Part shown: piece after piece, positions 1,120 to 41,874 of the stretch
Position numbering within the stretch: position 1 is the first letter of the stretch
Layout: each line of letters starts with the position of its first letter
Assembly (NCBI GenBank): GCA_016839945.1
Contig: JAEOTE010000108.1
Span: 25,966-89,965 of the forward strand
Source of the DNA: Candidatus Heimdallarchaeota archaeon
Lineage (GTDB): Archaea; Asgardarchaeota; Heimdallarchaeia; Heimdallarchaeales; Heimdallarchaeaceae
Reading direction: 5' to 3'
Length of the DNA: 64,000 bases
The notes under the pieces: model-generated
Seen by the model: the letters and a program-made list of their open reading frames with translations, nothing else
Database searches by the model: none
What the model was told of the DNA's origin: nothing
Position numbers and translations under genes: made by a program

Positions 1120-1920
1120 ATGAAAATCGTTGTGTTCATAAGTCAAATTGTCAACCCTCAAGTTAAACTACAAGGTGTTGATTACTTTGATTCATCACGA
1201 GTAAATGAAGATGATTTAATTATCAACCCATATGGAAAGAATGCTATAGAAGGTGCTTTAAAACTTAAGGAAATACTAGGTGCAGACGTTACAGCTGTCT
1301 GTTCTAAAGGTTTAAAGCCTAATAAAGCTCTTCGAGAAGCAATCGCAATGGGTTGTGATAATGCAATAGAAGTTGCAGATGAAACATTTTACACAGAAGA
1401 TCCACTAATTTTAGCTAAAATTTACACTAATATCTTAGAAAAAATAGAAGAATTTGATTTAGTTCTTCTTGGGGTTGAAGAACAATCTACTAGTTCTTAC
1501 GCAACTGCTGCAATGCTAGCAGAAAAACTCAATCTCCCAAGTGTGCTTTACGCAGAAGAAATAGAAATTCAAGGAGATAAATTAAGAGTTGGTCATGTTT
1601 TAGAAGGTGGAAGAAAAATTGTTGAAATGCCTATGAAAGGAATTATCAGTTGTAGTGATAGTCAATTTTTCATTCCAAGATATACAACTATGAAAGGTAT
1701 CTTAAACGCAAAAAGAGCTGAAATTCCTATCTGGAATGCAGCTGATATTGGAGTTAGCGCAAGTGTTGTTGGAGAAGAAGCAGCTTCTCTTAAACAAATA
1801 TCTCTTTCTAATATAGTTATTGAAAAAGAAAGCTTCATCATAAAGGAAGGGGAACCTGAAGAGCAAGTTGATAAACTTCTTGCGAAATTGAAAGAGGATG
1901 GAGTTAAACTAGGAGTGTGA
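1120..1920 (+). CDS. etfB: Electron transfer flavoprotein beta subunit (FixA)
   Basis: INPYGKNAIEGAL, ALREAIAMGCD, PRYTTMKGILNAK; directly upstream of ETF alpha. Confidence 0.9.
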   Translation: MKIVVFISQIVNPQVKLQGVDYFDSSRVNEDDLIINPYGKNAIEGALKLKEILGADVTAVCSKGLKPNKALREAIAMGCDNAIEVADETFYTEDPLILAKIYTNILEKIEEFDLVLLGVEEQSTSSYATAAMLAEKLNLPSVLYAEEIEIQGDKLRVGHVLEGGRKIVEMPMKGIISCSDSQFFIPRYTTMKGILNAKRAEIPIWNAADIGVSASVVGEEAASLKQISLSNIVIEKESFIIKEGEPEEQVDKLLAKLKEDGVKLGV

Positions 1921-29931: not shown

Positions 29932-30377
29932 TCTATAAGTGCAGATAAATGTCTGACTGACAAAGAAATATCCTCACAAAAGAAAATAATTATAGTGTTA
30001 ACGAAATAGAACTATTCCTCTTTCAAACAAACAGTTAGAGTTTTCACGATAGATTTGCTAGAAAAGATTTTCACCACTAAAAATAGATAAAAACAAGAAC
30101 TTATATGTGAAAAGATATCACTGACAATTTTCTTATTCATTAGAAAGCCTTAAACTGCTAAATAGTGATTTTTTGTCAGGTTTCTCTATGATGTATGCAT
30201 AATTAATTCACAATTAATTTAACTAGAGTTATGATAGAGACAACTAGAAAGAACTAGCTTTAACTTAATGAAGTAGAAATTATGCTTAATTAAAACAAAA
30301 TTAGTATGAATAAAGATGTGAAAGAACAATTTTTTAGTTATTAAAATTATTAAATGAAAGAATAGTTACATTTCTTT

Positions 30378-38755: not shown

Positions 38756-39979
38756 TTGACTTCAAATGTCCCTGAATTTCAAATAATTCACTATGAACCT
38801 CTTTATTCAGACCTTAATCTTGTTTTCAACACAGTATTAGAACTCTCCAATGATTTCAAGGAAAAAGGAGAGGATAATGTTAACATCCGTGTTCTTGCAT
38901 ATTTCTATGAAGGATTGTTGAACATTATCAAAGGAGATGACCTATACAGACAAAAGCAGTTTGGTCAATCGTTAGAACACTTCGAGGATGGACTCAAGTT
39001 AATCAACAGATCTAGAGCTTCAAGAGGAAGAGAAGGTGACCAGATTTTTGATGAAATGGTTAAGTGGATAAGCTATGCCGAAGGTATGAAAAAAATTACT
39101 GAAACTTTTAGTGAAGAGGACATTGAAAAAAGACTTTCTTTAGTAGAAGAGAGTATAAAAGATTTTGAGATTTTCTTGGAAGGAAGGAAAAAAGAACAAA
39201 ACCGTATTGACGAGATTATTGCAAAAGCAAGAATAAGCTACGCTAACTATTTGTACAAAAAAATAGAATCTTCAAAATACATTGAAAATTCAAAGAAATA
39301 CAAGAAATATCTTCTAGAAGCAAGATCTAAATTAATGAAAGCTAATTTTCTATATAGATCATTTGATGATGAATTAACAGAACTTCAGAATGTTATAGAT
39401 GAGATAACAAAACAGCATATTGTTTTTAGAGCTGAAGGATTCTGGGATCAAGGAACAATCAACATTATGAGTAGCAATTTTGCAGAAGCTCTTCGATTGT
39501 TCATAATTGCATCTAAATATTATTCGAGAGCCAGTGAAATCTGTGAAAATTTCATGGAACAAAGGTTATATCTTGCTTTATCCAGGATAACTGAAGCTAG
39601 TAGTATTGAAGCAAATGCTAGTGAGCTATATAAAAGAAAAGACAAACCAAAACAAGCTAGTGATAAATTCATGGAAGCTGTTGAGGTAATAGATATTGCT
39701 CTAGGTCTTTTAACCAGTATTAAAAGTGAAACTCTGATTAACAACATGACAGCACAACGTTCTTTTTATGAAGCATTATCTTTGGAAACAGAGGGTATCA
39801 ATTTGTTTGATAACGAAAGCTTTGCTGAAGCTGATGAAAAATTTGAACAAGCGATGAAAAAATTGAATGAAACTCAAATAAAAGCTACAGAGGGGAATAT
39901 TGATCAGTTACTTGAATTCGTTAGAACTGCTAAAAGTGAAATTGAAGGTTATATATCTATGACAAAGGCTATGATATAA
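38756..39979 (+). CDS. All-helical TPR/alpha-solenoid-like hypothetical protein
   Basis: Recurring A...F..A/G helical pairs across 407 aa; no TM or catalytic motif. Confidence 0.6.
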   Translation: MTSNVPEFQIIHYEPLYSDLNLVFNTVLELSNDFKEKGEDNVNIRVLAYFYEGLLNIIKGDDLYRQKQFGQSLEHFEDGLKLINRSRASRGREGDQIFDEMVKWISYAEGMKKITETFSEEDIEKRLSLVEESIKDFEIFLEGRKKEQNRIDEIIAKARISYANYLYKKIESSKYIENSKKYKKYLLEARSKLMKANFLYRSFDDELTELQNVIDEITKQHIVFRAEGFWDQGTINIMSSNFAEALRLFIIASKYYSRASEICENFMEQRLYLALSRITEASSIEANASELYKRKDKPKQASDKFMEAVEVIDIALGLLTSIKSETLINNMTAQRSFYEALSLETEGINLFDNESFAEADEKFEQAMKKLNETQIKATEGNIDQLLEFVRTAKSEIEGYISMTKAMI

Positions 39980-40026
39980 TAATATGACATAGAAAACCTT
40001 AAACCTTTATTTTTTAATATATTATC

Positions 40027-40105
40027 GAAGAGTTCACTATGATGTTACAACGGTCTACGATTCTTTGAAAATGAATTGTGATGGGCGGACTGAGATGAAT
40101 TCTTC
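40027..40105 (+). ncRNA. Dual-guide box C/D sRNA (snoRNA-like) guiding rRNA 2'-O-methylation
   Basis: 10-bp terminal stem GAAGAGTTCA/TGAATTCTTC; C box ATGATGT 40039-45; degenerate D' ACGA 40057-60; C' ATGAATT 40071-77; D box CTGA 40090-93; D guide TGATGGGCGG antisense to SSU CCGCCCGUCA; D' guide TTACAACGGTCTA antisense to LSU UAGACCGUCGUGA; upstream TATA-like tract. Confidence 0.88.
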
Positions 40106-40119
40106 TTAATTTTATAATA

Positions 40120-41874
40120 CTACCCAACTATGTTTGCAACAATTTCCTTGTATTTGAAGAAAATCAGTCTTTTATGCCCAGTTTCTGCAATTAGTCCATA
40201 AGTATTGATTGTATAAGTATCATCTGTGAGTGAGAAGTAAACAAAACCATTAACTCTTGCATCGTTTGCACAAATCTCAAGCATTCTTGTCAATGCTCCT
40301 TCTTGAACTCTTTCTCCATACATTACAGCAGACAATCCAAACTCAATAATCCAGAATTCTTTTTCATTTGGGACTATTTTATCAAGATAATCATTTATCT
40401 CCTCAATATCTCTTTCATGAATAACATAGTAGTCTATTCCTATGAAATCAAGAGTGCTATTTGTCCATAAAGGCTCGAATATATTATATTCATCACTGAA
40501 ACCATTAAAAGATAATTTTACTCCTACTTCGGTGTCATTTGACAATGAATGTAAGTGGTTTACAGTGTTATTAATGGTGGTTACCCATGTATCTATTGAA
40601 GGAACTTCTTTAAGATAAGCAGTAGAGAAACCAAAAGGTTCAGGATAGATAATAAGATATTCTGGATTACATTCTTCCAATAGTGTTATTGCTTGATTCT
40701 CCAAAGTTTCCGTATATTCAGAAAAGCTAATGTTTTGATAAGCCCATGCAGGGGTGCTATATCCATATGTTGTAAGCATTATTTTGAAACCATTAGATTT
40801 CAATATATTCATAGCTTGTTTGAATCCCGTAAGATTGTTATCTATTAATTCTTGTCTCACATCTAATTTTACTGTAGATACATTTAATTCTAATAATGCA
40901 TCTAGCTCGTTTTGGAATTCTGTTTCATAGTTAAAAAGAAAAGCATCAGAGTAAGAGATTGAAGTAAGAGTTACTCCTGTATCAAAATCTGATCTTAAAG
41001 AGAACATAGGATCATAGTTCTTTGAAGTGTATGAACTGTAAGAGCTCATAACTCCTATTGCTTGAAAACTGAAGACTAGAAGAAGGATAGCTAACATTGC
41101 ATAGATACCTTTTGCTCCATTATCCATAAATGATAGAAAAGGTAGAGAAGGTTTTTTCTCAATTTCCTCTACTTCTTGTTCGACTTCATCTAAGAAAACA
41201 CTCGCTCTTTTTCTCTTTTTGGATAAAGTGTCTTCTTTAGGTTTTGTTGCTTTTTGAGGTAGGCTTATTTTCTTTTCAATTTGCAAAGGTATACAAATTG
41301 GAATTATTATCAAAGCAGGATAAGCATAGTTTAATTGTCCGCTGAAAAAGAACGCTTGAAACATTGCATATCCAATAGCTGGAAGAACTAACATCCAATC
41401 AAGGAATTTAGGAAGAATAAAAGAAGTCTCAGCTGAGATTTTGTTAATAAATAGTAATGCAGTTAGAATTGCACTCAAAGAAAATAGAATGTTTGTTATT
41501 TTTCTCATTACAGTGGATTTGGTGATACCAAGAAAAGAAAATACAGTAACAGTAATATTGTTAATTGTTAGCAGCAATGCCCCTACTAATCCTGCAGTAG
41601 TTAAGCTCCCAAACCCATAGAAGAACAATAGGAATGTTCCTACAAAAATAAAGAATCCAGATAGAACATACAAATACATTTTTTCGTATTTTTCATGTTC
41701 AAGAGTGAATTTCACAAATGGTTTTTCTTTATCAAACAGATTTATTATATTTTGAAGTAAGAAAGTAATAAAATCTTTCAAAAAGAAATATAGGGGTTTT
41801 GCACTTACTGAAAAATTGAAAACGAGAGATACAATTGCTATGACAAATGCTCCACCAAATCCAAATATAGCCAT
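40120..41874 (-). CDS. Polytopic membrane protein with C-terminal clan GH-A glycoside hydrolase-like barrel
   Basis: About 6-7 TMs, then IYPEP (acid/base-like), DFIGIDYY, WIIEFG (nucleophile-like), YGLI. Confidence 0.7.
   Translation of the reverse strand: MAIFGFGGAFVIAIVSLVFNFSVSAKPLYFFLKDFITFLLQNIINLFDKEKPFVKFTLEHEKYEKMYLYVLSGFFIFVGTFLLFFYGFGSLTTAGLVGALLLTINNITVTVFSFLGITKSTVMRKITNILFSLSAILTALLFINKISAETSFILPKFLDWMLVLPAIGYAMFQAFFFSGQLNYAYPALIIIPICIPLQIEKKISLPQKATKPKEDTLSKKRKRASVFLDEVEQEVEEIEKKPSLPFLSFMDNGAKGIYAMLAILLLVFSFQAIGVMSSYSSYTSKNYDPMFSLRSDFDTGVTLTSISYSDAFLFNYETEFQNELDALLELNVSTVKLDVRQELIDNNLTGFKQAMNILKSNGFKIMLTTYGYSTPAWAYQNISFSEYTETLENQAITLLEECNPEYLIIYPEPFGFSTAYLKEVPSIDTWVTTINNTVNHLHSLSNDTEVGVKLSFNGFSDEYNIFEPLWTNSTLDFIGIDYYVIHERDIEEINDYLDKIVPNEKEFWIIEFGLSAVMYGERVQEGALTRMLEICANDARVNGFVYFSLTDDTYTINTYGLIAETGHKRLIFFKYKEIVANIVG

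Follow-up and report, generated by a model that had tools for sequence, protein, structure and literature searches.

An intergenic archaeal box C/D sRNA gene of about 79 nt is present at positions 40027-40105 of the window, the 64-kb stretch of Heimdallarchaeaceae DNA analysed here, which lies on contig C82 of a MAG that is 88% complete. It is best explained, with a probability of roughly four in five, as a stand-alone C/D sRNA that would guide the 2'-O-methylation of C1402 in 16S rRNA and of C2591 in 23S rRNA (E. coli numbering), and in which an old C1402 module is joined to a partner guide specific for this family. This reading is based upon sequence comparisons, and several observations were counted against it, among them the two to three G-U pairs in the D duplex, the degenerate D' box and the varying D' register within the family. 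The combination of a 16S target and a 23S target in a single sRNA is known from sR20 of N. equitans (PMC5389701). The results add to the Asgard C/D sRNAs a family that had not been catalogued, with precise predictions for two enriched species, Ca. Heimdallarchaeum aukensis and endolithica, both of which very likely carry the gene; this should help annotation and the study of how rRNA modification evolved. They also show that the guide for C1402, a universally modified nucleotide of the decoding site, is among the most widely kept of the archaeal guides and is present in mesophiles and in small genomes.

Structure, conservation and putative promoter of the element

The element is flanked upstream by a TPR-like gene (38756-39979, plus strand) and downstream by a convergent gene (40120-41874, minus strand) without a Pfam match. 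The original prediction had described C, D', C' and D boxes closed by a 10-bp terminal stem with one G-U pair, and the coordinates of all of these features were borne out (Table 1). The stem is formed by positions 40027-40036 and 40096-40105, and an extra C40037-G40094 pair lies beside the K-turn. The terminal C/D K-turn has tandem G-A pairs and a G-C pair that do not vary among 15 aligned homologs, and the flanking stem covaries. The internal C'/D' motif is also present, with degenerate boxes, but its G-A cores are kept with a hairpin or loop in between. The guides, 11 and 12 nt long, are complementary to rRNA (16S of the host itself and 23S from the family), and in both the +5 base forms a Watson-Crick pair. 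The fold z-score of the element is -3.68, with none of 200 shuffles folding as well, and in a de novo C/D scan of the whole 3.0-Mb genome it was the top-ranked match. As every class feature that can be tested from sequence was found in it, the element is a member of the archaeal C/D class, and the earlier claim of a box C/D sRNA in an Asgard host is upheld by its boxes, covarying stem, homologs and low-energy fold.

Table 1. Features of the C/D sRNA locus (positions in the window)
Feature	Position	Strand	Remarks
BRE/TATA-like promoter motif	39991-40004	+	Ends 23 nt before stem start; putative promoter
Terminal stem, 5' strand	40027-40037	+	10 bp plus C-G pair flanking K-turn; fold and covariation
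Box C	40039-40045	+	Seventh base is U, against A in every other homolog shown
D' guide	40046-40056	+	11-nt spacer; pairs 23S 2587-2597; +5 base G40052 faces C2591
Box D'	40057-40060	+	Degenerate; conserved part is the final G-A only
Internal 3-bp hairpin closing C'/D' K-turn	40061-40069	+	95% of cells paired; one compensatory change (G005)
Box C'	40071-40077	+	Degenerate
D guide	40078-40089	+	12 nt; +5 base G40085 faces 16S C1402
Box D	40090-40093	+	Canonical
Terminal stem, 3' strand	40094-40105	+	A40095 bulged; followed by AU-rich tail

The description of the element as unannotated also held, as it matched no family in an Rfam search of the 64-kb window, and the covariance model for sR1 (RF01152) gave no match in the window at E values up to 10. 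A literature search of mainly non-subscription papers found no published description of this sRNA family or of any other Asgard C/D sRNA, and no modification map for Heimdallarchaeia.

A covariance model combined with a comparison of synteny and covariation, as suggested with the original prediction, revealed homologs, kept neighbours and a covarying stem. The model detected one copy each in 25 of the 30 other genomes of the family (E values 1e-21 to 1e-7), about 15 homologs being recovered by BLAST. In the 15-row alignment, two-sided changes were seen in 11 of the 12 stem pairs (0 of 500 shuffles), and 91% of the stem cells were paired, as against 35-56% in slid controls. The guide cores are invariant in this alignment and nearly so across the family. 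Of the 25 other loci, 23 have retained the downstream gene and 21 the upstream gene. The homologs from G007 and G004 have three additional bases in front of box D, after the D guide, and with these the N+5 register for C1402 is lost.

A BRE/TATA-like motif is located upstream of the element and is recognisable at a constant distance in most homologs of the family; the strict form of this motif occurs 68 times in the 6.0 Mb of both strands. At the locus in G001 the upstream gene gives no match, yet the motif is kept, which supports independent transcription of the sRNA. The independent transcription proposed earlier thus finds support, though not proof, in this conserved motif, which is probably the element's own promoter. 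A sigma-70 promoter scan was set aside, as the host is an archaeon.

Predicted rRNA targets of the two guides

The 16S rRNA of the host is available as a partial fragment on contig C157, which was missed by the Rfam rRNA models and was found by motif, whereas no 23S rRNA is assembled in the MAG and the 23S of relatives was used instead. The numbering was checked on E. coli rrsB and rrlB for 16S and 23S, respectively. When 16S, 23S (from relatives) and 22 tRNAs were compared, the best target of the D guide was 16S C1402 and that of the D' guide was 23S C2591; the best tRNA duplex was far weaker and tRNA targets were rejected.

The D guide pairs with 16S positions 1399-1409 by eight Watson-Crick and three G-U pairs. 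The proposal that it addresses C1402 through G40085, according to the D+5 rule, was confirmed with the checked numbering, but the single G-U pair assumed for this duplex was not, because the host's own 16S has G1408 and U1409, which give two G-U pairs within 10 bp and a third at +12. The energy of the duplex is -18.3 kcal/mol, versus -21.0 for the perfect complement, and the D guide by itself barely exceeds chance, 17 of 300 shuffled guides scoring as well. The assignment to C1402, marginal from the host duplex alone, is settled by the comparison across archaea, and C1402 is most likely the nucleotide that this guide targets for 2'-O-methylation. No fewer than 11 Asgard families have the core of this guide ahead of a box D. 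In Asgard its +11 base, opposite G1408, is C or U; in the sampled genomes with A1408 it is U or A but not C. Each of the five genomes with A1405 that were sampled has U at +8. For genomes other than those of Asgard the targets were tallied by eye. The invariant G at +10 forms a Watson-Crick pair on 16S and a wobble on 23S.

The G-C pair at +5 and the length of the spacer are preserved in almost every archaeal homolog, and Cm1402 has been observed in P. abyssi, as Cm1376, the 1402 equivalent (PMC7005279), and in N. equitans (PMC5389701). Both observations argue against a role of this RNA as an rRNA folding chaperone, with one or both of the methylations weak or absent, which we consider very unlikely. 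Such a role would agree with the imperfection of the D duplex in almost all lineages, with the shifting D' register within the family and with the level of Cm1402 in I. hospitalis, which is below 50% (PMC5389701). It would also agree with a conserved guide in Pyrobaculum that has a mismatch at the listed 16S C1368 (PMC6009581), a position that probably corresponds to the entry for alignment position 1389 (= 1402) of PMC4644070.

Some further features of the 16S sequences were noted in the course of this work. Position 1405, which is G almost universally, is A in five archaea with small genomes (G165, G190, G201, G212 and G229) and in one Asgard genome (G096). Pattern matches to the guide in G096 and G133 were discarded, as they are without box C and stem. 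The 16S gene has inserts of some 30 nt around helix 45 that resemble small introns (L031:470-520, at the 3' end of the host 16S, and L063-L071); they occur at two alternative positions and are found in some close relatives but not in others.

The D guide also has a match in 23S rRNA, and in the order to which the host belongs it might serve two targets, 16S C1402 and C2558 in helix 92 of 23S. In the family genomes it pairs over 9-10 nt with 23S 2555/2556-2564, eight of the pairs being Watson-Crick, with C2558 at +5, and this nucleotide lies 33 nt from the D' target. Within the order the +8 base tracks 23S position 2561, the combination being U/A in the family and in G046 and C/G in five genomes of a sister family (G032, G034, G038, G040 and G042). 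Additionally, about 45% of the Pyrobaculum sRNAs have targets within 100 nt of each other (PMC6009581), and both two-target guides and a prediction equivalent to C2558 (Mka sR64) are on record (PMC4644070). If this were so, one 79-nt RNA would mark three sites, one each in the decoding centre, in the stem of the A-loop and in helix 93. However, the C2558 duplex is weaker (about -14.8 versus -18.3 kcal/mol), and the covariation of +8 with 2561 amounts to about two independent events. Eight genomes of Thermoplasmata and Methanomassiliicoccales pair a C at +8 with A2561, and in G196 and G178 the guide is unchanged though the 23S site there cannot pair fully. A linked pairing with C2558 and C2591 is seen in most members of the family, but G028 has kept the D' guide and lost the C2558 match. 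A general rule by which +8 follows 23S 2561 was rejected, as it fails outside the order, and the dual targeting of C1402 and C2558 is, on balance, unlikely.

A narrower version, in which the D guide has no target but C2558, the two guides are linked on domain V and the 16S pairing is fortuitous, would turn the U residues at +8 and +11 into Watson-Crick pairs and would also place the D' target close by. Many Asgard orthologs, however, fit 16S only. Nine Asgard families (f4, f5, f7, f8, f12, f13, f17, f24 and f25) have a C at +11, often with an A at +6/+7, and so does the D guide of G028; this C fits G1408 of 16S and mismatches A2564, which was found in every 23S sampled. The behaviour of the invariant +10 G described above also favours 16S. 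As RsmI was not found (see below), C1402 would moreover be left without a candidate writer. This version was therefore rejected as highly improbable, and 16S C1402 is retained as the target of the D guide.

The D' guide pairs with helix 93 of the relatives' 23S (2587-2598) at all 12 positions, by 11 Watson-Crick pairs and one G-U pair, and none of 300 shuffled guides scored as well. The 2590/2591 region indicated by the original prediction was correct, but the pairing at 12 of 13 positions given there was not: the 23S has a family-specific U2594 where a C had been assumed, and the guide has an A opposite this base, so that all 12 positions pair. Of the two Cs considered in that prediction, the first, the equivalent of yeast Cm2959, is faced in some relatives but not in the present copy. 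The 11-nt D' spacer found in eighteen copies leads by the N+5 rule to C2591, whereas a spacer longer by one base in eight relatives (G006, G010, G011, G013, G014, G019, G024 and G028) leads to C2590, which corresponds to Cm2959 by the offset of 369 derived from the U2552/Um2921 equivalence. In yeast, C'/D' motifs that are degenerate can move the site of methylation or give rise to two sites (PMC5389607), and the exact 23S base is for this reason given as a prediction: the D' guide would direct methylation of C2591, and possibly also or instead of C2590. This partner guide is restricted to the family and is not shared by other families, even within the order. Just after position 2600, past the D' target, the 23S of eight members of the genus departs from the consensus (L038, L039, L042, L045, L049, L050, L054 and L055), probably because of an intron.

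The genes for fibrillarin and Nop5 are adjacent on contig C85 of the host and that for L7Ae is on C41. By analogy with the established C/D pathway, the sRNA would be transcribed from its own BRE/TATA promoter and bound by L7Ae at its two K-turns, after which Nop5-fibrillarin would be loaded. Pairing of the D guide with 16S 1399-1408 would then lead to methylation of C1402 at the P site, and pairing of the D' guide with helix 93 to that of C2591 and/or C2590. In bacteria the identical 2'-O-methyl group at C1402 is introduced by RsmI, which, like RsmH, is a protein-only enzyme. A search for RsmI, suggested with the original prediction, found it in none of 61 genomes of the class Heimdallarchaeia, and RsmH was found in none of five genomes searched.

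Distribution of the C1402 guide in archaea

A GTDB-wide pattern scan gave at least 120 matches, and about 105 of the 120 listed are complete archaeal C/D sRNAs, their carriers including Methanobacteria, Thermoplasmata, Poseidoniales, Archaeoglobi, Thermococci, Altiarchaeota and Iainarchaeota; this sample is biased, as the pattern demanded canonical boxes. Among the 120 matches listed, U is present at +8 in 100 and A at +2 in 100. As judged from these comparisons, the C1402 guide is an old pan-archaeal module, found in Euryarchaeota, DPANN, TACK and Asgard, whose partner guides swap. Nearly every Asgard lineage has one or two imperfections in this guide, so that perfect C1402 guides are rare, and across archaea the usual flaws are a mismatch at +2, +6 or +7 or a wobbling pair with G1405. 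Selection may have favoured a weak duplex that is released quickly, and the imperfections may also be the reason for which guides of this kind appear in published sets with no target assigned.

Several of the known sRNAs carry a related guide. In M. kandleri, sR114 has a 12-nt guide that is identical to the D guide (Dennis et al., 2015; PMC4644070, additional file 1), and the guide cores of S. acidocaldarius sR122, I. hospitalis sR11 and M. maripaludis sR106 match it (PMC4644070, PMC5389701). All four of these RNAs are expressed, as detected by RNA-seq (PMC4644070, PMC5389701). Iho sR11 has already been proposed for Cm1402 (Seistrup et al., PMC5389701), whereas Sac sR122 and Mma sR106 are listed without a predicted target (PMC4644070). 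The C1402 guide precedes D' in the Mka, Sac and Iho sRNAs but precedes D in Mma and in the present element, and the partner guides of all four are unrelated to the D' guide found here. C1402-guide loci of Thermococcales and Archaeoglobi score above the gathering threshold of Rfam sR1, whose members have this guide at D' and a different partner; our element gave no match to this model.

The helix 93 target region is also shared with known guides, viz. sR30 of P. calidifontis and sR27 and sR124/127 of I. hospitalis (PMC4644070), alignment position 2864 (= E. coli 2590) being a predicted target in Pyrobaculum and Ignicoccus (PMC4644070). Compared with these C2590 guides the present copy is one base shorter and would lead to C2591, and unlike it they are not joined to a C1402 guide.

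In Methanobacteria (L187, L209 and others) the partner guide of the C1402 sRNA is strongly conserved and, by eye, looks complementary to the anticodon arm of tRNA-Met. Archaeal-type C/D sRNAs were also seen on contigs of bins labelled as bacterial (L195, L245, L271 and L274), which are probably mis-binned or mislabelled.

Relation to eukaryotic guides, and other loci in these genomes

The original prediction considered the element to be possibly functionally ancestral to eukaryotic snoRNAs. The yeast guides snR70 (Cm1639) and snR73 (Cm2959) and U43/SNORD43 (Cm1703) have target nucleotides in common with or adjacent to those predicted here, and their fibrillarin mechanism is alike. A direct Asgard ancestor of SNORD43/snR70 and of snR73/SNORD35 would account for the predicted target shared with the eukaryotic C1402 guides (16S C1402 = yeast Cm1639 = human Cm1703) and for the eight relatives that point at C2590. 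However, most archaeal groups have a C1402 guide and nothing singles out the Asgard lineage, Cm1402 itself is already known in archaea, and within a single order one family may differ from the next in the partner guide. The SNORD43 covariance model (RF00221) gave no significant match: none of five genomes exceeded the cut-off, and the locus was not among the matches at E values up to 10. As the guide is pan-archaeal, it cannot single out Asgard as the source of eukaryotic snoRNAs, and since an 8-10 nt complement of a universal sequence may arise by descent or by convergence, the two are inseparable here. The terminal stem, which had been regarded as snoRNA-like, is likewise no sign of a eukaryotic link, as paired terminal stems are known in archaeal sRNAs. 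We therefore regard such direct ancestry as extremely improbable, and the claim was not sustained; the element is an ordinary addition to a known class of sRNAs.

Two other candidate C/D loci were noted in the host genome. The first of these (L311; contig C149, about 30137-30215, plus strand) is a second uncatalogued C/D sRNA with homologs in G005 and G001 that have boxes and stem, and its D guide points to 23S A2577, which corresponds to yeast Am2946 by the same offset of 369. The other (L312; contig C1, about 1610-1700, minus strand) is a third C/D candidate with a strong stem, whose D' guide has its predicted target at 16S U531. Lastly, the 16S and 23S genes of the family are not in one operon (L092-L096, L102); they are divergent in G025, G005, G004, G002 and G029, in G028 a distance of several kb lies between them, and in G027 and G030 they are far from each other. 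Between E. coli positions 1703 and 1889 the 23S gene of G030 (L100) is longer than that of G027 by about 680 bases, which likely represent an intron.
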